DNA of 64,000 nucleotides, taken from Mobula hypostoma (Eukaryota). Where the stretch lies: positions 73,534,001 through 73,598,000 of the forward strand of contig NC_086097.1 in the NCBI RefSeq assembly GCF_963921235.1. The letters are read 5' to 3'. Positions 1-62,624 of the stretch are shown in pieces. The position numbers and the translations under genes are program-made. Each line of letters starts with the position of its first letter. Positions within the stretch are counted from its first letter, which is position 1. A model generated the notes under the pieces. It did no database searches, was not told the DNA's origin, and worked only from the letters and a program-made list of their open reading frames with translations.

Positions 1-118
1 AGCCCGAAACGTCGACTGTACCTCTTCCTAGAGATGCTGCCTGGCCTGCTGCGTTCACCAGCAACTTTGATGTGTGTTGCTTGAATTTCCAGCATCTGCA
101 GAATTCCTCATGTTTGCG
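1..118 (+). mobile_element. Penelope-like pseudo-LTR/3' end fragment, cut by the window edge; includes the 3' half of a hammerhead motif
   Basis: CCCGAAACGTCGACTG...GATGCTGCCTGGCCTGCTG...CCAGCATCTGCAGA; same unit as the ends of the GIY-YIG-containing element at 16.8-18.9 kb. Confidence 0.75.
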
Positions 119-305
119 ATAGGAAACAACTTCTTCACATCTACTCTATCTCGGCCTTCAATATTTGATAGGTTTCAATGAGATAACCCCCCTCCCCCCA
201 TTCATCGAAACTCCGATGAGTACAGGCCCAGAGCCATAAAATGCTCCTAATACATTAACCCTTTCATTCCCAGAATCATTCTCATGAATTTTCTCTGGAT
301 GCTCA
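119..305 (-). mobile_element. CR1-type LINE ORF2 3' fragment (decayed)
   Basis: Similar to the 33360-33530 segment of the intact CR1 in this window. Confidence 0.65.
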
Positions 306-559
306 GTCCACATCTGCAATCCTGAGCACCCTGATACTCAGATTCTTTCCCTATTTTCACTCTAATGTCATTCATAATGGCGCTGACGGTAACCCATTTA
401 TGACTACTACAATTGAAATCCACATAGGTACTTAAGTAAGCAACATCATTTGAAGACGTTTTAAAAAATCTATTGATTCTTAAAAATAATAGACCCCGGA
501 TGGTAAACTTGGGTCATGAATGCAGTTCCCCTTTAAGAAAATGAAAGCATAGATGCCAA

Positions 560-1835
560 GCCAGTCTGCAGGTACGACTGAAACACAGAGGCTTTAGACC
601 CTGCACTCCTCACTATTATGTTGGCAAATGTACAGTCTCTGGAAAATAAAACTGGCCTCAGAGCAAAACTGCAGAACCAGCGGGACATCAGGGACTGCTG
701 CCTACTTTGCTTAACAGAAAAATGTCTCAATGGTGCCACTTCAGATACAGCACTGCAGCCTGATGACTTCAACATTTTCCACAAAGACAGGGCAGCTCAA
801 TCTTTTTAAGGTAGAGAACATGGAGCATGCTTTACGATTAACTCATCATGGTGCACAGACATGATAGAGGAAGTGGAGTATGCTTTACGATTAACTCATC
901 ATGGTGCACAGACATGATAGAGGAAGTGGAGTATGCTTTACAATTAACTCATCATGGTGGTTCTGTCTCAGTCCTGCTCACCTGACCTGGAACATCTGGG
1001 GCTCAAGTATTGTCCATTTTATCTGCCAAGGGTGTTTTCCACTATCATTCTGGTAGCGATGTACATTCCACCTCAGACAGGCTCTGGAGAAGCTGGGCAC
1101 CAAAATCAGCATTCACTAAACAATGCAGACAGATGCCTTCCTTATCATTGCAGGGGATTTCAACCAGGCCAGCTTGAAAAAGTGTCTGAACAACTACTAC
1201 CAACATATCACCTGTGGAACCAGAGGAGCTAATACTCTTGACTACTGTTATACCACCATCAAGAACAGTTACTGTGCCATCCCACACCCACACTTTGGAA
1301 GGTCCAATAACCTGGCTGTACTTCGACTCCTATCATACAAGCAGAAATAATGGCCGCAGCACCGGTGGTGAGGATGAAGGTGGTTTGGTCAAGAGTGGAG
1401 GTGGAGTGCTTACAGGACTGCTTTCAGTCAGTAGACTGGACAATATTCGGGGACTAATCTTTGAATCTTCATCAAGACCTGTGCGGAAGAGGAAGAGGAA
1501 GTTGAGGGAATATATACCAGTCCTCACAGAGGGATCAGCAGTGGAGAGGGTGAGCAGTTCCAAGTTCTTGGGTGTTAACATCTAGGTTCAACATATTGAT
1601 GCAATTGCAAAGGCGGCGTGATAACAGGTACATTGCATTAGGAGCTTGAGGAGACTTTGAATGTCATCAATGACTTCCGCAAATTTCTACAGGCGTACAG
1701 TGGACAGCATTCTAACTGGTTGCATCACCATCTAGCATGCAGGGGCTACTGCACAGGTTCAGAAAAAAGTTGTAGAAAGTTGTCAACTCAGCCAGCTCCA
1801 TGATGGGCACTATCCTCCCCAGCATCAAGGGCATC
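560..1835 (+). mobile_element. Decayed Rex/Babar-type non-LTR element (endonuclease fragments plus RT C-terminal fragments)
   Basis: ORF fragments MLANVQSLENK, IIAGDFNQASLK, TLDYCYTTIK, VERVSSSKFLGVNI; broken by frameshifts. Confidence 0.75.
821..959. repeat. Tandem duplication, 53-bp unit, about 2.6 copies
   Basis: TGGAG(C/T)ATGCTTTAC(G/A)ATTAACTCATCATGGTG starts at 821, 874 and 927. Confidence 0.9.
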
Positions 1836-2671
1836 TGAATGTCAACAAAAGAGACAGTTGTTAACTTCAGGAGGACACAGAGTGACCACTCTCTGCTGAA
1901 CATCGACGACTCCTCCGTAGAGATCGTTAAGAGCACCAAATTTCTTGGTGTTCACCTGGTGGAGAATCTCACCTGGTCCCTCAACACCAGCTCCATAGCA
2001 AAGAAAGCCCAGCAGCATCTCTATTTTCTGCGAAGGCTGAGAAAAGTCCATCTCCCACCCCCCCCCCCCATCCTCACCACATTCTACAGAGGTTGTATTG
2101 AGAGCATCCTGAGCAGCTGCATCACTGCCTGGTTCGGAAATTGCGCCATCTCGGATCGCAAGACCCTGCAGCAGATAGTGAGGTCAGCTGAGAAGCTCAT
2201 CGGGGTCTCTCTTCCCACCATTAGACACTTACACCACACGCTGCATCCGTAAAGCAAACAGCATTATGAAGGACCCCACGCACCCCTCATACAAACTCTT
2301 CTCCCTCCTGCCATCTGGCAAAAGGTACCAAAGCACTCAGGCTCTCACGACCAGACTATTTAACGGTTTCTTTCCCCAAGCCATCAGACTCCTCAATACA
2401 CAGAGCCTGGGCTGACACCAACCTACTGCCCTCTACTGTGCCTATTGTCTTGTTTATTATTTATTGTAATGCCTGCACTGTTTTGTGCACTTTATGCAGT
2501 CCTGGGTAGGTCTGTAGTCTAGTGTAGTTTTGGTGTTGTTTTTACATAGTTCAGTGTAGTTTTTGTATTGTTTCATGTAGCACTATGGTCCTGAAAAACG
2601 TTGTCTCGTTTTTACTGTGTACTGTACCAGCAGTTATGGTCGAAATGACAATAAAAAGTAACTTGACTTGA
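1836..2671 (+). mobile_element. 5'-truncated Rex/Babar-type LINE 3' end
   Basis: ORF 1839-2252 (KTKE/KFLGVH/LYFLRRL/FYRGCIESILSSCITAWFG-type motifs), 3' UTR, AATAAA and ACTTG tail. Confidence 0.8.
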
Positions 2672-3240
2672 GCTTCCATACCAAACTTCCTCAACTGTCT
2701 GAGGTGAAGGAGGTGCTGTTGTGCCTTTTTCACCACATAGCTTGTGTGTACAGACCACAAGGTCCTCAGTGATGTGGATGCCGAGGAACTTGAAGCTGTT
2801 TACCCTCTCAACCTCAGATCCATTGATGTCAACAGGGTTTAGCCCATCTCCATTCCTCCTGTAATCCACAACCAGCTCCTTTGTTTTAGCAACATTGAGG
2901 GAGAGGTTGCTTTCTTGACAGCACTGTGTCAGAGAGATGACCTCTTCCCTGTAGGCCACCTCGTTATTGTTTGAGATAAGGCCAATCAATGTAGTGTCAT
3001 CGGCAAATTTAATTAGCAGATCAGAGCTGTGCGTGATGACACAGTCATGGGTATACAGGGAGTAAAGGAGAGGACTTAGTACATAGCCTCAAGGGTCTCC
3101 TGTATTGAGAGTCAGAGGGGTGGAGGTGAGGGAGCCCACACTTACCACCTAGATCCAGCTGCACAAGGCAGGGTCAAGGCCGAAGTCTCTGAGCTTCTTG
3201 TCGAGCCTGGATGGAACCATGGTGTTGAATACTGAACTGG
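2672..3240 (-). mobile_element. Rex/Babar-type RT fragment
   Basis: ORF 2612-2989 (IGLISNNNEVAYREEV, LNVAKTKELVVDYRR, FKFLGIHI); closely similar to 6400-6920. Confidence 0.8.
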
Positions 3241-51669: not shown

Positions 51670-54600
51670 CAGTAAAATACATTACAGGCCCTTCAACCCA
51701 CGATGTTATGCTGACATTTTAACCTACTCTAAGATCAATCTAACCATTCCCACCATGTAGCATTTCATTTTTCTTTCATTCATGTGCCTATCTAAAAGAC
51801 TCTTAAAGGCCTCTGATGTAACTGCCACCATACCACCTCTGGCAGCATGTTATATGCAACCAGCATTCTCTAAAAAGCTACCTCTGACATCCCCCCTTTG
51901 CTTACCTCCAAACTTAAAATTATGCCCCCTTATATTAGCCATTTCTGTTCCTGATAAAATGTCTCCAGCTGTCCACTCTGTCTTCTACCAGGTCACTCCT
52001 CATCCTCTTTCTCTTGAAAGGAAAAGCTTTTGTTTGCTCAAACTATCCTCACAAGTCATGCTCTCTATTCCAGGCAGCATCCCAGTAAATCTCCTCTGCA
52101 CCCTTTCTAAAGCTTCCACATCCTTCCTTTAATAAAGTGACCAGAACTGAACACAATACTCCAAGTGTCGTCTAACTAGGATTTGATAGAGCGCAACATT
52201 ACCTTGCAGCTCTTGAACTCAATCCCCCGATTAATGAAGGCCAACATACCATATGCCTTCTTAATCACCTTACTAACCTATGTGACAACTTTGAAGGATC
52301 TACCATTTGCACTCTCCGCAACACCACCAAACTTCCCTTCCACTTCCTCATGCAAGTCATTATATAAAAACCACAAAGAGTAGAGGCTGCAGAACAGATT
52401 CCTGTGGAACACCACTGCTCACTGAAATCCAGATAGAATAGTACCACCCTTTACCTTCTGTGGACAAGCCAATTCTGAATCTATGCAGCCAAATTGCCCT
52501 GGAACTCACGCCTCTTGATTCTCAGAATGAGTTTACCATGGGGGACTTTGTCAATCACCCTTTTCACCACATATCTAGATACACCACATTCACCACCCTA
52601 CCTTCATCAATTTGTTTTTAAATTCCTCAAATAATTCAATTAGGCATGTGAGTCATGACTTGCCCCTCACAAAGTCATTCTGACTAATAATTAAAAACTA
52701 TGCTTCTCCAAGTGCTCAAATCCCATCATTAAGAATTGTCTCCAATAGTTTGTCCACCACTAACATAAGACTCTTTTGTCCATAATTACCAGGATTATCC
52801 TAACTATCTTGAACAAGGAAAAAGCATTTGCTACCATCCAATCTTCTAGTACTACCTACGTGGCCAGTGAAGATGTAAAGATCATTTCCAAAGGTGCAGC
52901 AATCATCCCTCACCTCCCATAGTAACCTCGGGTATATTCATTGAGTCCTAGGAATTTATCTATCCTAAAGTTTTTCAAAAGTTCCAGCACACTTTCTTAA
53001 CCTTGAAATGTTCTCACATATCAGTCTGTTTCATGCTATACTCACATTCAAGGTCCCTCTTGCTGGTGAATTCTTAAAGTATTCCTTAAGGATCTCCCTT
53101 ACATCCTCTGATTCCAGGCACATTTCCTAATTTATTCCTGATCAGTCCCACCCTCACTTTAGTCATCCTGCTCTTCTTCATGTATGTGCAGATCACCTTC
53201 GGCTTCCCTTACCCTACTTGCCAAGGACGTCTCATGTTCCCGTACAGCTGAATGGACTTAAGCTCGTTTCTGATTGCCTTTAACTCTTCTCCAGCTATGT
53301 CTGATCTTTGCTTCCCAAACCTTTAAGTACGCTTCTTTCTTCCCCTTGATAAGATGTTGCATATCTCTTGTCAACATGCTTCCTCATCCTACCATCCTAT
53401 CGCTGCCTCAATGGGCAAACCAATGCAAGTACACCCAAATTCCTGCCGAATAGCATCATAATTCAACTGCCCCCCCCCCCATTAAATACTTCCCTATACC
53501 ATCTACTCCTTTCCCTGCCCAAGGCTTGGTATAGGTCAAGGATTTGTGGTCACTGTCTCTGAAGTGATTGCCAAACGAAAGATCTGTCACCACTACAGGT
53601 TCTCTGTCTAGTACCAGATGCAGTATAGCCTCTTCTCTATTCAACCTGTCTACATATTGTGTTAGGAATCATTCCTGTACCCAACTAACAAATTCTGCCC
53701 CATTTAAATGTTTTGCACTGAGAAGGTCCCAATCACTATCAGGGAACTTCAAATCACCCAACACAACAACCCTGTCATTTTCCAAAATCTGACTCCTGAT
53801 CTGTTTCTCAGTGTCTCTGTTGCTATTGGGTGGGGGGGGGCAGTCTATAGAATATTCCCAATAGAGTGATTACTCCCTTCCCACTTCTGACTTCCACCCA
53901 CTCTAATTCAGTAGATGATCCTTCCGCAACATTCTCCCTGTTCCGCAGTTATGATGCTATCTTTGATTAGCAATGTCATTTCCCCATCTTTTTTACCTCC
54001 CTTCTTATCCACTTGTGAAACATCTAAATCCCAGAACATTTAGCAGCCATTCCTGCCCTTGTGACAGCCAAGTTTCTAACAGTCACATCATGCCTCCACG
54101 TATTGATCCATTGTTTAATTTCATCCTTGTTCCTGATATTTCTTGCATGAAATAGACACATTTCAACTCATCCAATTGGCTGCATTTAGACCACAAGACC
54201 ATAAGACATAGGACAGAATTAGACCATTCAACACATCAAGTCTGCTCCGTCATTCCATCATGGCTGATCCCAGATCCTACTAAACCCCATACACCTGCAT
54301 TCTTGCCATATCCTTTGATGCCCTGACCGATCAGGAAACCATCAACTTCCACCTTAAATGTACCCATATACTTGACCTCCACCGCTGTCTGTGGCAGAGC
54401 ATTCCACAGATTTACTACTCTCTGGCTAAAAATATTCCTTATACTTGTTCTAAAAAGTTTCCCCTCAATTTTGAGACTGTGCTTTCTAGTTCTGGATATC
54501 CGCACCAGAGGAAACATCCTCTCCACATCCACCCTATCTAGTCCTTTCAACATTCAGTATGTTTCAATGAGATCCCACCGCATTCTCCTAAATTCCAGTG

Positions 54601-54998
54601 AGTATAAGCCCCATCCACTGTCTATCCTTCCTCACAGTCTCTTGAGGTACTGTATTTACCTTTATACTAACCTCCTCATCCTGCCCGCAAGGACATTGCC
54701 ACTGTGCACCCCCACTCACCCCCCACCCAAGTTCAGGTTTAACCTGTCCTTTTCTTACTGATCACACCTTCCCCCAGAAGAGATCCCAATGATTCACAGA
54801 TGTGAATCCCTGCCTCCTGCACCAACTCTTCAGCCATACATTCATCCTATTCTTACTTTCATTGGCATATGACACAGACAGCAACCTAGAGACTACCCTT
54901 GTGATCCTGCTTTTCAGCTTCCTATCTAGCACCCTATATTCCCTCTTCAGAAGCTCATTCCTTTTCCTACTTATGTTGCTGGTGCCAATATGTACCAT
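51670..54998 (-). mobile_element. Old near-full-length CR1 (ORF1 esterase remnant plus decayed ORF2); resumes at ~61020
   Basis: VHIGTSNISRKR...NHWDLFWG (CR1 ORF1 SGNH/esterase-like), DSDHK endonuclease remnant, RT remnants. Confidence 0.7.
54188..54612 (-). mobile_element. CR1 3' fragment nested in the older CR1
   Basis: LKGLDRVDVERMFPL, FSQRVVNLWN; tail AGACCACAAGACCATAAGAC. Confidence 0.8.
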
Positions 54999-55621
54999 GC
55001 GTCAGTCGTGCATGCAGCCTGTTACAGCCGCTCGGACTAGTTTTCTTACTTTTTTCTTCTTACTTTTTTGTTAACTTATGTTATTTGTTGTATTTTTTTC
55101 CCCATGGTAACACGGTGAAGCCGCACCCTCTCTAACATGCTGGTGGAGAAAGTTTTATTTGGGTTTTTAGCGCTGGAAATAGTTACATTCGGACACATCT
55201 CATTAGCGGGGCAGCAGTATGGTCACATTGTTTATTCCAGGGACCTAATTGCGCTTATGCCGGCCGGTTTAGCGAACAGAGCGGTGGACACCCCGGCTGA
55301 AATCTAGAGGAAAACACACAGAGGATGCAGAGGGGGATCAAAAAGGCGAGGAAAGAGGACCAGGTCGAGACAACAGAGACTTATGGAGAAGAGGCGTTAT
55401 AAGCCTGTCTTCTCGCTCTCATTATGGGCAATGTGAGACCGCTGGGGAATAAAATGGACGAGGTGACGGCGCTAGCCAGAAGTCAGAGAACATTTCGGGA
55501 GAGCAGTGTTATGTGTTTTACTGAATCGCGGCTGCACGAGGAAATACCCGACCAAAACATTTCCATGGAGGGCTTCCAGACCGTTCGGGCTGACCGTAAG
55601 TGCACTGAGAGCGGTAAGCAT

Positions 55622-56502
55622 TGTTACGTACCCCGTAACTGGGTTGCCAAACCAGCAGAAATGGATCACTCAGTTGGAGTCTGGAGTACTAGAACTAAGA
55701 AAGTTTTATTAAAGAAACAAGCAACACAGTAATCGAAAGGATAATAAATGCAACAGTTCAGCGATGATAAACACACATGTGCACAGAATTAAGATAACAG
55801 CATCAATCAAGCTCTATCGTTGTCTAGGGGTAAATGACCAATTTCAAAATGACTCAAAGTTCAGTCCAGTTTAGTAGTTCAGTTCGCAGTAATCGTTGCC
55901 ATGGCGGTGGACAACGTGGGGGAAGAGAGAGATAGAATAGGAACAACTCATCATTCAGAACGGCTTCACTCACAGACCAGCAAGATGGCTCACAGACCAG
56001 CGAGATGGCTCACAAACAGCTTTTTGGGCGGGTCCTTGGTGATGTCACCTGAGGTCACCGACTGTGACCCCTCCTCCAGATGCGGTCGATCCTCTGCAGT
56101 GAACCCGGCACCCAGGCAAGGGCGGACACACACCGGGTTCCCGCTGATCGTACCTTTCCACCCTTGTCGTTGTCTGGTACTTCTCACCCACTCGTGAGAA
56201 GTGCACCGCTTCCAGGGTCTCGTTACCTCGGGTGGCGTGTGTGTCTGTCCTAGCGAACCTGTCCCTTTTTATCCCCCTGCTGGGGCATCGCCTGTCCATC
56301 ACCTCAAACAGTTCAGGGTTCAAAGGGGGGAGCCGCTCCAGACAGCTCTTCCTCCCACATCCCTTCATTACACATCTCCAGACGCTGCTCCATTGTTCCT
56401 TATCTCTCCTTCCCCTGAGGGCAGGTGGCAGACCAACTGCTGATGCCACTGATGCTAGCCCAGGCCAGCAAACATCTTAATTTTATGTTTATTCTCGTAA
56501 CA
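55622..56502 (-). repeat. 3' LTR (881 bp)
   Basis: Direct repeat of 59741-60621; 7-bp terminal inverted repeats. Confidence 0.95.
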
Positions 56503-56515
56503 CTTCCCCCCTTTA
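56503..56515 (-). other. Polypurine tract
   Basis: Minus strand AAAGGGGGGAAG immediately before the 3' LTR. Confidence 0.9.
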
Positions 56516-56674
56516 AGGATTTTTACCGGGAGGTAAAAATTACAAACATGACTACATTATCTGATACATACACAATATACATCTTTAACAGTTATTTAGC
56601 TAATACAGAGAATTTGAAGCTGTCAACACCTTGACAGACAGTCATCACATTTTCTGTTCCTTTTACACGTGTTA

Positions 56675-59641
56675 TTAATAATCCCTTAGACCAGGCTCCA
56701 ACTCAGCAAACTTCATAGTGGCCAAAAACACTGATGAATTGCGACCAATGTAACCTCTCATTTGGTTTTGTCCCGGACCACAATAACAAGGGTCGTCCCA
56801 TTCCGACTCAATTTTCTCTCGCAAGGGCTTAGTAGGAGGGGGACGGGTATTGACCGCAGAGTTATTGCAAAACTTCCTGCAGTACCCCACCATCTCCAAA
56901 AGCCTTCTGAGGGCCCTCTTGTCTGTCGGGGTTGGGAGGTCAGCGATAGCCTGCACTGTAGCTTGCATCACTGCCAGCTGCCCCTGTGTCACCACAATTC
57001 CCAGGTAAGTGACTCTCGTGTGGCCGAATTCATTTTTTTCAAGGTTCACTATCAAACTGGCTTCAGACAGCCGTGTTAAATTGCCAATACACACCTCTGT
57101 GTTCATCAGCCCTTTAGTCACTGAATTACTCGAAAAATATGGGTGTTGTTTACTTGGCTGCCCTATTGTAACAGACATAACCCAACGTCCCAGTTCTTTG
57201 CATTTCCTCGGGACAATCAAACACATGGGTGCGAGTCGTTTAATTACTCCTTCGGGGATTAAGGGAGAGACCTTATCAGTAGACCTGGCCAAAACAATAG
57301 CCTTCTCCCATCTGACCGATCCCATCCTAATCTTTTCAAAATGGTTTTTTCCTCTTATCAAGGGGCCCCTAGCTTCATTGATTTCCACGCTAACACCGAC
57401 TAGGTTTGTTAGCGTATCAAAAGCCGGTGACCGTCTCAGTTCGCGTCGGTCATGATCAATAACATTCTTCCCCCTGGGCAGCCGGTAAATCTCTTTCATG
57501 ATTCCACCAACTGTTTCCTCCAGCACCGCAAAATGTCCACCGGGGGGTACCTCGTGGGCCATGTTAAAAACCTCATCCCCATAACTCTTTTGCACCACCC
57601 CCCACTCCTCATCTGCGGATGCTGTACTTGATTTCCCTTTCTTCCTTAGCACTTCCTCATCCGCACAATAGCCTACTAGTTCCCTTGTCAAGGCTGTGTC
57701 AGAGAGAGCTGTCTCTGCAAAAACCATCAGCCCCTCGTCTCGCTCCTGCGTCTGCACAAATTCTTTCCTGGCTACTGCTACGTCCGTCCCAGCTCCCTCA
57801 CTACCTCTTATCTCACTACACCCTGTCTCATACAAGGTTGGCAGAAATGTTTCAGCCAAATTCACCATCGCGGGCGGGGCCTCCATGCTGGCAGGCTGAC
57901 CTGTCAATCTCACGACTGGGAACACGATTCCTCCGGCGATGTCATTACCGAGCAAGACTTCCACGTCTTTCATCGGTAATTCGGACCTCACCCCGATCGT
58001 GACTAGTCCAGAGACCAGGTTGCTCTGTAAATGTATCTGGTGCAAAGGGACTGACTCTGTCCCTTCCCCAACACCTTTGACCTCTACCTCCCCAGTCTGG
58101 GTCTCTGAGCTAAACTCTAATACACTCTTCAGTATTAGTGACTGACACGCTCCCGTGTCTCTCCAGATCCGCACTGGAACTGGTTTTAACCTCTTTTTCA
58201 TTGACACCAGTCCAGCCGAGATAAACCTCTCGCGCCCTTCCTGGACTTTTTCAGACCTGTCCTTCCCTAGCGGTTCGCTTAACAGCTCGATACAGCCATT
58301 CAAAATTTCCGCTTTTCCTTTCCCCGTCTCCTTCCTTGGGGCAAAGCACCTGGACGCAAAGTGTCCGACTTTCCCACAATTATAACAGACGACCCCAGGA
58401 GACTTCCTACCAGACTGCTCCCGGTCTACCTTATCCTTTTCACTAGTCCCCGGCTTACTTTCTGACTTTTCCGGTGGACTCTCCCCGCCGTCCTGACTAC
58501 CCTTCTGGTAGCCTTTACTCGGGGCAACCTTCATTTTATGCGTCAACGCATACTCATCCGCTAACTTAGCAGTTGCGGCTAACGTGGCTGCCTCTTTCTC
58601 ATCGAGGTAGGGTCTCATACCCTCAGGGACACAACCTTTAAACTGCTCAATCAGAATCAGCTGCAGCAGTCTGTCATAATCCCCCTCTACCCCTTTCGAG
58701 GCGCACCAACGCTCACAATATGTTTGCATCTCACGAGCAAACTCCAAATACGTGCGGTCCCACCGCTTCCTCGCATTCCGGAACCTCTGCCGGTATGCCT
58801 CCGGGACCAACTCATAAATCCTGAGGATGGCCTCTTTCACCACCTCATACCTCTGGGCATCTTCCGCGGATAAAGCGGAGTAAGCTTGTTGGGCTTTCCC
58901 TTTCAGTACACTCTGAAGTAAAACAACCCACTTATCCCTCGGCCAGTCCTGACTTATAGCTACTTTTTCGAAGTGGAGAAAGTACCGATCCACATCGGTA
59001 TCGTCAAATGGGGGAACCAGCCTAACCTCCTGGGTCGCCCGGAACCCTCCACCTTGGTTCGGCACGAGCCCCTGCTCGGCCCTTATCTTTAACTTCTCCA
59101 GCTCAAATTCCCTTTCCCTCTGTTTCTCCTCTCTCTCCAACTGTCTGTCCCTCTCTCTCTCTTCTCTCTCCAACTGTCTGTCCCTCTCTCTCTCTTCTCT
59201 CTCCAACTGTCTTTCTCTCTCTTGCCTTTCTACCTCTTTCTCTTTCTCCCGCCTTTCTAACTCTCTCTCTTTCTCCTGCCTTTCTAACTCTCTCTCCTGC
59301 CTTTCTAACTCTCTCTCTTTCTCCTGCCTTTCTAACTCTCTCTCTTTCTCCTGCCTTTCTAACTGCCGTACCCGGAACTCGTGCTCGAGTCTCAGTTTTT
59401 CCAGCTGTACCTGTACCGCGTCTCCAGCAGGTTTTTCAATAGACACCTCCCCCAGCTCACCTTGGGGAAACACACCTTTAGATACATAGTGCTCTACAAT
59501 AGCTCTGTGTATCTCCTCTCTCCTCATTGTCGACTTCACCTTAGCAAGATTCACCCGTTTGGCCACAGCTATCAATTCCGATTTCCTGGCATCCTCTAAT
59601 GCCTCCAAGGTCGGCGCCTTTATAAATTCCTCAACCTCCAT
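56675..59641 (-). CDS. Gag-protease polyprotein with in-frame remnants of IN, RT and RNase H (988 aa)
   Basis: Charged coiled-coil repeat; capsid/SCAN-like region (LVPEAYRQRFR, LILIEQF); CCHC knuckle CYNCGKVGHFASRC; protease RDTGA...LLGND; AHE..GGH; KQHPY; VNLEKNEF..VTYLG; LEMVGYCRKF. Confidence 0.9.
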   Translation of the reverse strand: MEVEEFIKAPTLEALEDARKSELIAVAKRVNLAKVKSTMRREEIHRAIVEHYVSKGVFPQGELGEVSIEKPAGDAVQVQLEKLRLEHEFRVRQLERQEKERELERQEKERELERQERELERQEKERELERREKEKEVERQERERQLEREERERDRQLEREERERDRQLEREEKQREREFELEKLKIRAEQGLVPNQGGGFRATQEVRLVPPFDDTDVDRYFLHFEKVAISQDWPRDKWVVLLQSVLKGKAQQAYSALSAEDAQRYEVVKEAILRIYELVPEAYRQRFRNARKRWDRTYLEFAREMQTYCERWCASKGVEGDYDRLLQLILIEQFKGCVPEGMRPYLDEKEAATLAATAKLADEYALTHKMKVAPSKGYQKGSQDGGESPPEKSESKPGTSEKDKVDREQSGRKSPGVVCYNCGKVGHFASRCFAPRKETGKGKAEILNGCIELLSEPLGKDRSEKVQEGRERFISAGLVSMKKRLKPVPVRIWRDTGACQSLILKSVLEFSSETQTGEVEVKGVGEGTESVPLHQIHLQSNLVSGLVTIGVRSELPMKDVEVLLGNDIAGGIVFPVVRLTGQPASMEAPPAMVNLAETFLPTLYETGCSEIRGSEGAGTDVAVARKEFVQTQERDEGLMVFAETALSDTALTRELVGYCADEEVLRKKGKSSTASADEEWGVVQKSYGDEVFNMAHEVPPGGHFAVLEETVGGIMKEIYRLPRGKNVIDHDRRELRRSPAFDTLTNLVGVSVEINEARGPLIRGKNHFEKIRMGSVRWEKAIVLARSTDKVSPLIPEGVIKRLAPMCLIVPRKCKELGRWVMSVTIGQPSKQHPYFSSNSVTKGLMNTEVCIGNLTRLSEASLIVNLEKNEFGHTRVTYLGIVVTQGQLAVMQATVQAIADLPTPTDKRALRRLLEMVGYCRKFCNNSAVNTRPPPTKPLREKIESEWDDPCYCGPGQNQMRGYIGRNSSVFLATMKFAELEPGLRDY
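59100..59365 (-). repeat. In-frame minisatellite in gag (21-bp and 27-bp units encoding ERQEKEREL / EREERERDRQL-type repeats)
   Basis: CT-rich tandem units on the plus strand; reading frame preserved. Confidence 0.9.
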
Positions 59642-59710
59642 TTCTGCTGTTTGTCTTTTCTTTCTTTCGGGAATTTTAACCCAATCAATTTACTCCGTCC
59701 CAAATTTAGC

Positions 59711-59736
59711 GTTCAAAATCGCGGACGAGAACCCCA
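59711..59736 (-). other. Primer binding site, tRNA-Pro-like
   Basis: Minus strand TGGGGTTCTCGTCCGCGATTTTGAAC, 4 nt after the 5' LTR; compare the tRNA-Pro complement TGGGGGCTCGTCCGGGATTTGAAC. Confidence 0.8.
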
Positions 59737-59740
59737 CTTA

Positions 59741-60621
59741 TGTTACGTACCCCGTAACTGGGTTGCCAAACCAGCAGAAATGGATCACTCAGTTGAAGTC
59801 TGGAGTACTAGAACTAAGAAAGTTTTATTAAAGAAACAAGCAACACAGTAATCGAAAGGATAATAAATGCAACAGTTCAGCGATGATAAACACACATGTG
59901 CACAGAATTAAGATAACAGCATCAATCAAGCTCTATCGTTGTCTAGGGGTAAATGACCAATTTCAAAATGACTCAAAGTTCAGTCCAGTTTAGTAGTTCA
60001 GTTCGCAGTAATCGTTGCCATGGCGGTGGACAACGTGGGGGAAGAGAGAGATAGAATAGGAACAACTCATCATTCAGAACGGCTTCACTCACAGACCAGC
60101 AAGATGGCTCACAGACCAGCGAGATGGCTCACAAACAGCTTTTTGGGCGGGTCCTTGGTGATGTCACCTGAGGTCACCGACTGTGACCCCTCCTCCAGAT
60201 GCGGTCGATCCTCTGCAGTGAACCCGGCACCCAGGCAAGGGCGGACACACACCGGGTTCCCGCTGATCGTACCTTTCCACCCTTGTCGTTGTCTGGTACT
60301 TCTCACCCACTCGTGAGAAGCGCACCGCTTCCAGGGTCTCGTTACCTCGGGTGGCGTGTGTGTCTGTCCTAGCGAACCTGTCCCTTTTTATCCCCCTGCT
60401 GGGGCATCGCCTGTCCATCACCTCAAACAGTTCAGGGTTCAAAGGGGGGAGCCGCTCCAGACAGCTCTTCCTCCCACATCCCTTCATTACACATCTCCAG
60501 ACGCTGCTCCATTGTTCCTTATCTCTCCTTCCCCTGAGGGCAGGTGGCAGACCAACTGCTGATGCCACTGATGCTAGCCCAGGCCAGCAAACATCTTAAT
60601 TTTATGTTTATTCTCGTAACA
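59741..60621 (-). repeat. 5' LTR (881 bp)
   Basis: Direct repeat of 55622-56502; adjacent to the PBS. Confidence 0.95.
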
Positions 60622-62624
60622 GCATAAAGGAGGGGGGGTTGCTGTTCTGGTTAACAACAGATGCTGCAGTCCTGGACATATTACAATCGAGGAACATGTT
60701 TGTAGCCCAGATATTGAACTTTTTTGCTGTTGGACTCCGGCTATATTCCACTGAGATACAACACTGGGCATCATGGGAGGTTGTTCCTGCCTGTGGTCAT
60801 CGAAATTTGCAGCTTCTTCCCTGGAGGGTCAGACACCCTGAGCCAATAGGCTGGTCCTGGACTTATTTCCATCTGGCATGGTTTGCATATTGTTGTTTGA
60901 TTGTTTGTGGTTTTTGTATTGCTATAGTTATGCTCTATTCTTGGTTGGTGCAGCTGTAACAAAACCCGATTTCCCTCGGGATCAATAAAGTATGTCTATG
61001 TCTATGTCTATATGCCTATGACTTCTGGTAGCTCACCCCACCCCCACAAGCCTCTACTCACTAAAGCCTCAATTCCCCACTCTACTCCAACAATGGCCAC
61101 TCTGTTTTTATTGGCCTCTTCTGAGTGCCTAAAAAACCAAACAATCTCATCAAGCTCCACAGAAAGTCCTGGCAGGCAGTGTTTGCTTTTTATAATTAGA
61201 AAAAAAAACGCTGCAAAACATAGTGCTCTGACTTCTTGCTTCTTAGATCATGTCTAGATTCTGTTTCCAATGCTGGATGTCTTAATTAGACTAATGCTTT
61301 CAAAACCATGTTAAGAACAGACACTAGATGCTTGTCTTGCATTTGCAGACATTAGCCGAAGTAGACAGCAATAATCGGGTCACTGCATCATCAATTTACC
61401 ACATTTAATTTTCCATCTGTTTAACTAACTTTCAGCACAAATCATTTTTCTGTTACTTAAAAGGATTTTAAGTGGAAACAGCCAAGTCAAATATTGCCTT
61501 TTCCTTTTAATTGGTATGAGCCTGCAATGCAACGGCAAGTTTATCATTGCATCTGTGCATATGACAAAAACTCGACTTTGAGTGTGTTTGCTTGCCTATT
61601 TCTTTACAGATAGGAGCAACTATCCAAGAAGACAACATTTCCATAATAAAAAAACTACATATAAAAACCATCAGAGCTATCCATGAAGGAAACCATTTAC
61701 TATTTGTTGGCCTCTCTTCTAAAGTTCTCTCTACATGGTTTTTTCTGCATCTTGGTGTTTTTCATCTTCTGTTTTCTTACTCTCTTCATTCCTATTTGGT
61801 TCTATGACCAACACTTCTTTCAGAATTATCTTAAGTACTTGAACACATCTACATCATCTGTAAAGCTCCTCACTTAGCTTGTTGAAGAGTATCAGGGTGT
61901 TGCACCATTACGAGTTATAATTTGAAAGAAGCAAACCAATTGAAAGAGAAGATAAGGAAAAAACAAGTAACAGTACATGATATGATATCTCAGATTATGG
62001 AAGGGGTGTGTGGGGGAGGGGTAGAGATTCAGGCAATTTCATGGAAAGCTGTCTGTTCCCCCACACAATTACTAAGAAGTACAGGATATCTCTGCACGTG
62101 TGCTAATGATAATGTCCCAATCTCACCAAGAGCAGTTTAATGATCTCTGCCAACTCTACACTAAGGACTGGAAACTTCACGAGGCTGAGTACGAGGGGCC
62201 TAATTCCTCGAGGCTTTACATTGCAGTAATGAGAGTTTGATCATAGATTTAACTGAACAAATCATGACCTATAGAGTTATTTGACTATGCCTTGGCTTTT
62301 CCCTTGACAATGAAGATAACATGACAAAAAAGTTAAACTAGGATTTCAAGTCTCATGCATCTGTATGCAACAAAAGCAAGGGACTCAGTTCTACAAGCTT
62401 CCTTGATGAAGATTTTAGAAATTTTAAAAAAATCCTCTCACTCAAATAAATCACTGGTGACACACAGAGTTATGGATCTTGAAAATAAGATTGCAATTGC
62501 TTTGAAGAATTTAGCTGATTTTGTTCACTTTGAGGGTGACAGAGATAAGAATAGGTGTATATCTAAACTCTAGTACAGCTGTTTCTAAAACCTGACATCA
62601 TCCTCAGCTGATTTAAATGAAAGC

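Follow-up and report, generated by a model that had tools for sequence, protein, structure and literature searches.

Within a stretch of 64,000 nucleotides of the Mobula hypostoma genome (contig NC_086097.1, positions 73,534,001 to 73,598,000 of the forward strand; hereafter the window), a complete long terminal repeat (LTR) retrotransposon of 5,000 bp was located at positions 55622-60621, on the minus strand. Its structure, together with its copies and relatives in the same genome, suggests with a probability that we put at about 85% that this copy was inserted recently and belongs to a non-autonomous family of Gmr1-type elements with a high copy number and recent activity, and that this family would receive its reverse transcriptase (RT) and integrase (IN) from a relative of the type of L032, a full-length element of that genome. 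The Gag and putative protease (PR) of the family are kept by purifying selection, and the enzymes encoded downstream have collapsed into remnants that are still read in the same frame.

A complete element encoding Gag, a putative protease and remnants of pol

A repeat search over window positions 54000-62500 revealed one direct repeat pair, and when its two 881-bp arms were aligned with their flanks both showed TG...CA ends and differed in two columns only (55677 G vs. 59796 A, and 56202 T vs. 60321 C). A preliminary description of this DNA, made from its letters, had reported 881-bp LTRs with the two differences TTGGAG/TTGAAG and AAGTGC/AAGCGC, which are exactly these columns. It had also proposed a GCAT target site duplication (TSD), a primer binding site (PBS) and a polypurine tract (PPT), and all of them were found: GCAT stands outside both LTRs, AAAGGGGGGAAG abuts the 3' LTR and, on the element strand, TAAG and then the PBS-like stretch TGGGGTTCTCGTCCGCGAT directly follow the 5' LTR. 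The single copy of the element within the window has therefore everything expected of a complete LTR retrotransposon, that is, LTRs with TG..CA ends, a TSD, a PBS and a PPT. As the open reading frame (ORF) of the element lies on the minus strand, the right-hand LTR is the 5' one and the element reads from right to left.

The flanks of the insertion (55424-55621 and 60626-60745) contain a reading frame resembling the endonuclease of a long interspersed nuclear element (LINE), which runs on across the insertion from ...FQTVRADRKCTESGKH on its left to KGGGVAVLVNNRCCSPGH... on its right, with the translations ...TESGKH in the left flank and KGGGVAVLVNN... in the right one. As this frame is continuous across the site, it fits a true insertion, and we interpret the element as nested in a fragment of an older retroposon.

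The only long ORF (59641..56675, minus strand) encodes 988 amino acids (aa), confirming the stop-free 988-aa frame described previously and placing it on the minus strand; it contains all the motifs that had been listed for it (CCHC, DTG, LLGND, AHEVPPGGH, KQHPY, VNLEKNEF..VTYLG..MVGYCRKF and NSSVFLATMK). When the ORF was searched against Pfam at E<=1, a SCAN domain (aa 280-369, 1.4e-12) and a zf-CCHC (aa 418-432, 4.7e-06) were detected and nothing else, so that neither a complete RT nor a complete IN domain was found at this threshold. The PR shows D, T, LLG and D residues that are invariant in the 10 relatives compared. In the N-terminal part, an ERQEKERE repeat differs in length among the copies of the element, mostly by multiples of 3.

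A protein search with the tail of the ORF (aa 570-988) returned 14 proteins. Seven of them (P0001-P0005, P0011 and P0013) are near-identical or related short forms carrying the names of one ray species, six (P0006-P0010 and P0012) are unnamed polyproteins of 1,495-1,566 aa, and P0014 is a weak 554-aa RT match. The Pfam domains of four of the long polyproteins (P0006, P0009, P0010 and P0012) appear in the order SCAN, Integrase_H2C2, rve, SH3/p58_C, RVT_1 and RNase H. By BLASTP, aa 200-719 of the ORF are collinear with P0006 129-719, stopping inside the H2C2 finger, and aa 840-952 lie on P0006 1272-1401, where the YIDD of P0006 stands opposite CIGN, followed by an 18-aa gap; KQHPY aligns to the lead-in of the RT N-terminus. 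In the H2C2 finger remnant both histidines are retained and CxxC is gone. Alignment to full-length relatives thus bears out the map of stumps previously drawn (IN zinc finger, RT N-terminus, RT thumb and RNase H). It had been stated as well that the DDE core of IN, YxDD and the RNase H motif are missing; no rve, RVT_1 or RNase H was indeed detected in Pfam, but YxDD survives as the relic CIGN, mutated rather than absent. With the tail as query, the ESM Atlas returned RT/RNase H clusters at 0.79-0.83 at best, which is too low to be taken as a match.

Relative to L032, nucleotide alignment revealed deletions of 63, 21, 15, 867, 21, 18, 384, 54 and 258 nt in the window copy, then one of 14 nt at aa 976, and three insertions of 3 nt each. 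The 867-nt gap corresponds to L032 aa 625-913 (the end of the zinc finger, the whole rve core and most of the SH3 part), the 384-nt gap to aa 1034-1161 (the front of RVT_1), the 54-nt gap to aa 1180-1197 and the 258-nt gap to aa 1293-1378 (most of RNase H), and the last 12 codons of the ORF are out of frame relative to L032. With the rve core, the fingers and palm of RT and most of RNase H deleted, and with CIGN in the place of YIDD, the element as judged from its coding capacity cannot be autonomous.

The position of IN upstream of RT is what distinguishes Gmr1 elements from the rest of the gypsy group (excerpts of PMC8220671). The full-length relatives, in which Gag (SCAN), CCHC, PR, IN, RT and RNase H follow each other in one frame, have the PR-IN-RT-RNase H order that had been recognised as that of Gmr1, and the remnants of the window copy are collinear with it, although in this copy the core of IN, the fingers and palm of RT and the greater part of RNase H are gone. 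We class the element as Gmr1-like Ty3/gypsy on this domain order; about 114 aa of RT are left in the window copy.

The collapsed form is a family of young insertions

The collapsed form is a family of many independent young insertions with the same junctions, not a single locus. When the 3,238-nt internal region was used as a query against the 3.48-Gb assembly from which the window comes, 2,688 candidates were obtained at first look, and among the best 40, which were scored, 39 of 41 rows span the whole internal region (1-3238) with 97-100% identity. The IN and RT junctions are common to the named proteins P0001-P0004. The full frame, from MEVEEF to LR[D/S]Y, is retained in 24 of 30 fetched copies (979-999 aa) and broken in the other six. 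Among 28 copies followed from end to end, 27 have a 4-bp duplication of their own, and the LTR pairs show 0-10 mismatches, five of these pairs being identical. P0004 is encoded letter for letter in the assembly, and a search with it gave 30 places without a stop among the 53 scored, with open frames mostly of 950-994 aa and 89-94% identity. None of the three outcomes that the preliminary description had set against its own proposal was seen, neither a structure unique to this locus, nor random stops and frameshifts in other copies, nor complete RT and IN domains in the ORF.

P0003, P0004 and P0013 retain short stretches that are missing from the window copy, and therefore at least three small in-frame deletions postdate the collapse. 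In a second organism, contigs from its sequencing runs cover all 30 bins of the element, and two of the contigs listed bridge the IN junction near 57452.

Some copies are arranged in groups. Four of them lie head to tail at G000:C22:122729540-122745124, with a start-to-start distance of ~4,110 nt that equals one internal region plus one LTR, in a tandem array sharing LTRs. At G000:C18:22501644-22507867 (L005), a partial copy is placed head to head with a 5'-truncated copy, as an inverted pair. In the public protein set, near-identical ORFs of the family bear host-gene-like names, for example 'metastasis-associated in colon cancer protein 1 isoform X1' for P0001; these names are probably an annotation artefact, through which the family inflates gene counts.

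An L032-type element as the likely helper

A search with P0006 revealed many full-length elements in the same genome, of which L032 was the closest. Its 1,440-aa open frame contains SCAN, CCHC, H2C2, rve, SH3/p58_C, RVT_1 and RNase H. The LTRs of L032-type elements are 93-97% identical to those of the window copy (~95% for L032 itself), the 5' untranslated region (UTR) and the start of gag of L032 are 95.5% identical to their counterparts, the final 30 nt of the LTR and the PPT do not differ between the two, and the synonymous distance (dS) between both gag genes is 0.06. The IN-RT part of L032, which is missing from the collapsed family, gave 2,593 candidates at first look, and at least 11 of the 40 scored were at >=98%. 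Three fetched sisters of L032 are 98.7-98.9% identical to it over 4.6 kb, and one of them has an LTR part that is 97.2% identical to that of the window copy. On C80, a pair of neighbouring L032-type copies lies at a distance of 5,774 nt from each other.

The preliminary description had envisaged an autonomous partner with matching LTR ends and PBS. The LTR ends of L032 do match, but the PBS was the same in 4 of the 28 copies, the others having either the variant form (23 copies) or a hybrid of both (one copy). A pattern search of the genome found no tRNA-like site for the variant PBS. The pattern for the L032-type PBS gave 36 genome sites, and both sites inspected are tRNA-like fragments. We take the tRNA in question to be that for Pro; a 3' end matching the L032 PBS is present in genome fragments that have a TGG anticodon loop, and no intact tRNA gene was retrieved. 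Fragments of tRNA-Pro-like sequence, with a T arm and a TGG anticodon loop, were observed beside LTR-like ends in L047 (~1490-1545) and in L048 (~1480-1530), the latter with an encoded CCA; ARAGORN did not recognise them as tRNA genes, and they may be relics of primer read-through in other LTR elements.

A mosaic of segments with different histories

When the window copy was compared with L032 along its length, dS rose from 0.07 in gag through 0.35 in PR and 0.59 in the linker plus zinc finger to 0.80 in aa 742-835, and was 0.58 for the RT remnant. The closest relative also changed from one segment to another, being L032 for gag (dS 0.06) and L036 for PR (dS 0.18), whereas dS in the tail was at least 0.43 to every relative examined. 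The trees agreed with these distances, with gag pairing with L032 (support 94/87) and PR with L036 (99/98), and the terminal branch of the window copy measured 0.004 in gag, 0.11 in PR, 0.6 in the linker and 0.5 in the RT remnant. For the segments homologous to the tail (aa 742-835 and the RT remnant), non-synonymous distances (dN) amount to 0.04-0.14 among the autonomous elements and to 0.19-0.43 between these and the window copy.

Read in this way, the element has the make-up of a recombinant mosaic. In the simplest reading, the LTR-gag and PR segments of an old lineage lacking pol would have been replaced by exchange with autonomous lineages, and such an exchange between retroelements would imply that their RNAs were packaged together. 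The proposal of a long-lived non-autonomous lineage, based previously on the divergence of the stumps compared with the youth of the LTRs, was thus supported, but not as a case of simple decay against young LTRs, the tail being at a large dS from all relatives within a mosaic. Ongoing recombination was not seen among the sampled copies, 28 of 28 of which share the same mosaic relative to L032. Hypermutation was considered as the cause of the diverged tail and ruled out, as the private changes (A>G 36, G>A 36, C>T 23 and T>C 19) show no one-sided excess.

Selection on Gag, protease and the tail

Copies of the family differ from each other by 2-3% and the two LTRs of a copy by 0-0.5%, so that most of the differences between copies arose in replicating lineages. 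Shared variants in gag plus PR were 26 synonymous to 12 non-synonymous, corresponding to a ratio of non-synonymous to synonymous rates (omega) of ~0.13 (p=2e-9), and the deviation from neutrality was maintained when alleles absent from L032, L036 and L037 were counted (11 synonymous to 9 non-synonymous, p=0.0016). Downstream of PR, the shared variants were 14 synonymous to 31 non-synonymous (omega ~0.67, p=0.14), and both regions differed by Fisher's test (0.0009). The diversity per codon position points in the same direction, with 0.0066 in positions 1+2 vs. 0.027 in position 3 for gag plus PR and 0.0155 vs. 0.019 for the post-PR part, the diversity of the LTRs being 0.019. Therefore, Gag and PR are kept by purifying selection.

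When all variants among copies were used, omega was 0.27 for the N-terminus, 0.27 for gag, 0.33 for PR, 0.73 for the linker plus zinc finger and 1.1 for the RT remnant, and the C-terminal piece had zero synonymous variants. For aa 720-838 omega was 0.36 (18 synonymous to 21 non-synonymous, p=0.0018, uncorrected for the 7 regions tested). Thus, most of the tail is near neutral in its amino-acid sequence, with a hint of constraint at aa 720-838. This segment looks constrained among the copies, yet it is the most diverged one from the autonomous relatives (49% aa identity).

In the preliminary description, selection had been suggested to act either on the fused tail or on the avoidance of stops; it is mainly the openness of the frame that seems to be selected, whereas selection on the residues of the tail is limited to the hint just mentioned. 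The post-PR frame has no stop in 403 codons, compared to 31 and 33 for the remaining two frames of the sense strand (49% G+C), and its openness is therefore not due to base composition. All nine deletions upstream of aa 976 relative to L032 are in frame (chance 5e-5), and for the six that necessarily postdate the loss of function the chance of all being in frame is 1.4e-3. Over the 246 codons that are the same in L032 and L036, 176 substitutions are private to the window copy and there is no stop, the expectation being 6.9 stops if all of these were neutral and 3.5 if half of them were. Outside the coiled-coil repeat the ORF shows two indels, both of 1 nt, among the 28 copies, compared to 15 and 14 shared indels in the two LTRs; in the post-PR part there is one shared indel vs. 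~20 expected at the LTR rate. Taking these data together, we lean towards the conclusion that selection keeps the frame of the tail open.

Explanations for the family and its open tail

According to the explanation that we favour, a non-autonomous family served by L032-type relatives, RT and IN provided in trans by such a relative would copy the RNA of the element and insert it, and the element would provide its own Gag and PR. Past template switching between co-packaged RNAs would account for the nearest relative not being the same for gag, PR and the tail. Selection would keep the dead tail open to reading, with weak or patchy selection on its amino acids. One reason could be damage to the genomic RNA from premature termination, which might expose it to decay; alternatively, the fusion protein might help its own RNA in cis.

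Several points weigh against this explanation. The 28-30 copies analysed, out of possibly thousands, are those most similar to the window copy. The statistics of frame retention carry a look-elsewhere risk, as the long ORF was what drew attention to the element; the LTRs are possibly prone to indels and so may be an unfair neutral yardstick, and the counts of stop gains within the family (2 among 79 tail variants) are too low for a test. Regarding PR, it gave no match in Pfam and was called from motif, position and conservation only, a profile search against the PDB produced only DDI1 (E=0.47-0.63), and an AlphaFold2 model from a 10-row alignment had a pLDDT of 40 and was unusable. Regarding the helper, the L032 copy has a gap of 394 nt, not a multiple of 3, in the coiled-coil segment, which leaves its ATG out of frame; sister copies with frames of 1,551-1,580 aa are known from the search table only, and the PBS of 23 of the 28 family copies differs from that of L032.

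The frame could have been kept for the sequence that it encodes, if the tail or a part of it were a working protein module, either as a fusion acting in cis or as a piece docking onto the Pol of the helper. The values for aa 720-838 speak in its favour, as omega there is similar to that of PR and third-position diversity is 1.9x that of positions 1+2, and so do the in-frame deletions upstream of aa 976 and the precedent of a cis-acting gag-pol fusion (excerpts of PMC6466679). However, the post-PR part as a whole does not differ from neutrality, omega reaches 1.1-1.4 in the RT remnant, the C-terminal piece lacks synonymous variants, the p-value for aa 720-838 is uncorrected, this segment is the one that has diverged most from the relatives, and neither Pfam nor the ESM Atlas recognised a fold or family in the tail; we thus consider a working module unlikely. 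The opposite case, an open tail owed to historical accident and not to selection on the frame, with deletions in frame by chance and too little time for stops to appear, seems to us similarly doubtful. Variation within the family is low (diversity ~0.017), so that stop gains are uninformative, and the choice of the element for its long ORF is a source of ascertainment. Such an accident would nevertheless have to include nine in-frame deletions out of nine (about 1e-3 when those after inactivation are counted), at least three of them small and later than the collapse, 176 private substitutions without any of the 3.5-6.9 stops expected, and a depletion of indels relative to the LTRs.

That the ORF is a domesticated host gene derived from SCAN/Gag, and not a mobile element, is hardly credible. 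Names such as that of P0001 and the purifying selection on Gag-PR would fit a host gene, but LTRs, PBS, PPT and an own 4-bp duplication accompany each copy, the candidates at first look number thousands, a LINE fragment surrounds the window copy, and a single syntenic LTR-less orthologue across rays was not seen.

Within the explanation by L032-type helpers, a further step can be proposed as a conjecture with the odds against it: the dead pol tail would be kept translatable on purpose, in such a way that a Gag-PR element read almost to its 3' LTR shields its genomic RNA from the decay that premature termination sets off and floods the particles with extra Gag, the helpers making Gag and Pol in one frame and hence in a 1:1 ratio. 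If this were true, the partnership would lean to mutual benefit and would be kept in step by repeated LTR-gag/PR exchange between co-packaged RNAs.

Comparison with known systems

A layout of this kind is found in the mouse IAP 1-delta-1 element, in which an internal deletion fuses gag to leftovers of pol in one ORF; this form needs proteins in trans and is the most active one of its group (excerpts of PMC6466679). Both elements are thus non-autonomous and have an ORF made by deletion from gag and pol leftovers, but in the excerpts on IAP 1-delta-1 a single 1.9-kb deletion is described that also removes part of gag, whereas the ray element has a whole gag and PR region and several in-frame deletions in pol. 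Action of the fusion protein in cis is reported for IAP in the same source and is a conjecture for the window element.

In a survey of sugar beet, 28 families keep only GAG/PROT (TR-GAG-like) and 15 families have extra decayed POL domains, and partners were inferred from LTR similarity, with ancestry blurred by recombination (excerpts of PMC13570524). The retention of GAG/PROT, the decayed POL remnants, the LTR-similar partners and the recombination are all shared with the window element. The differences lie in the host, a plant vs. a ray, in the Gmr1 lineage of the ray element, and in the continuous open frame through the remnants, which is not reported in the passages of the survey consulted. 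The layout with Gag and PR kept and pol collapsed is thus already known in plants and mouse. In soybean, Du et al. (2010) reportedly described autonomous and non-autonomous partners that share LTRs by recombination and have internal parts with different histories; this is again a plant system. A limited search of the open-access literature yielded no description of a non-autonomous Gmr1-type family, or of such a family in rays.

The family is a clean, well-populated vertebrate case in which capsid and PR are under selection and the enzymes have collapsed, with a probable helper in the same genome and a clear recombination mosaic. As such, it bears on what non-autonomous elements must encode themselves, on how parasite and helper stay compatible and on whether selection can favour an open frame as such.

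Features of the window copy

The positions of the parts of the element are collected in Table 1.

Table 1. Parts of the retrotransposon in the window, from left to right.
Feature	Position	Strand	Details
TSD, left copy, GCAT	55618..55621	.	Flank alignment
3' LTR, 881 bp	55622..56502	-	2 differences vs. other LTR; ~95% identity to L032 LTRs
PPT, AAAGGGGGGAAG, adjoining 3' LTR	56503..56514	-	Invariant in 28/28 copies; common to L032
3' UTR	56515..56674	-	~91% identity to L032; diversity 0.009
RNase H-like C-terminal end remnant, aa 953-988 + stop	56675..56785	-	258-nt deletion, then 14-nt deletion at aa 976
RT remnant, aa 839-952: palm end (YIDD->CIGN), 18-aa deletion, thumb and connection	56786..57127	-	Aligned to P0006 1272-1401 and L032; omega 1.1-1.4
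Linker remnant, IN C-terminus/RT N-terminus, ending in KQHPY, aa 731-838	57128..57451	-	Flanked by 867-nt (IN core) and 384-nt (RT fingers/palm) deletions
PR-IN linker and first half of the H2C2 zinc finger of IN, aa 586-730	57452..57886	-	omega 0.59-0.76
Putative retropepsin-type protease, aa 441-585	57887..58321	-	DTG at 58151-58159; LLGND; omega 0.09-0.18
Gag core, aa 200-440	58322..59044	-	SCAN-type capsid domain 58535-58804, CCHC knuckle 58346-58390 (Pfam); omega 0.16; dS 0.06 to L032
N-terminal part, aa 1-199, coiled-coil-like ERQEKERE repeat of variable length	59045..59641	-	
PBS, variant form TGGGGTTCTCGTCCGCGAT	59718..59736	-	4 nt after 5' LTR; variant form in 23/28 copies
5' LTR, 881 bp	59741..60621	-	Repeat search and arm alignment
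TSD, right copy, GCAT	60622..60625	.	Flank alignment

A search of the element against Rfam gave no match at the gathering score. Each LTR contains an ATG-started ORF of 107 aa on the minus strand (56045-56368 and 60164-60487), both versions being one residue apart, and this is probably a chance ORF.

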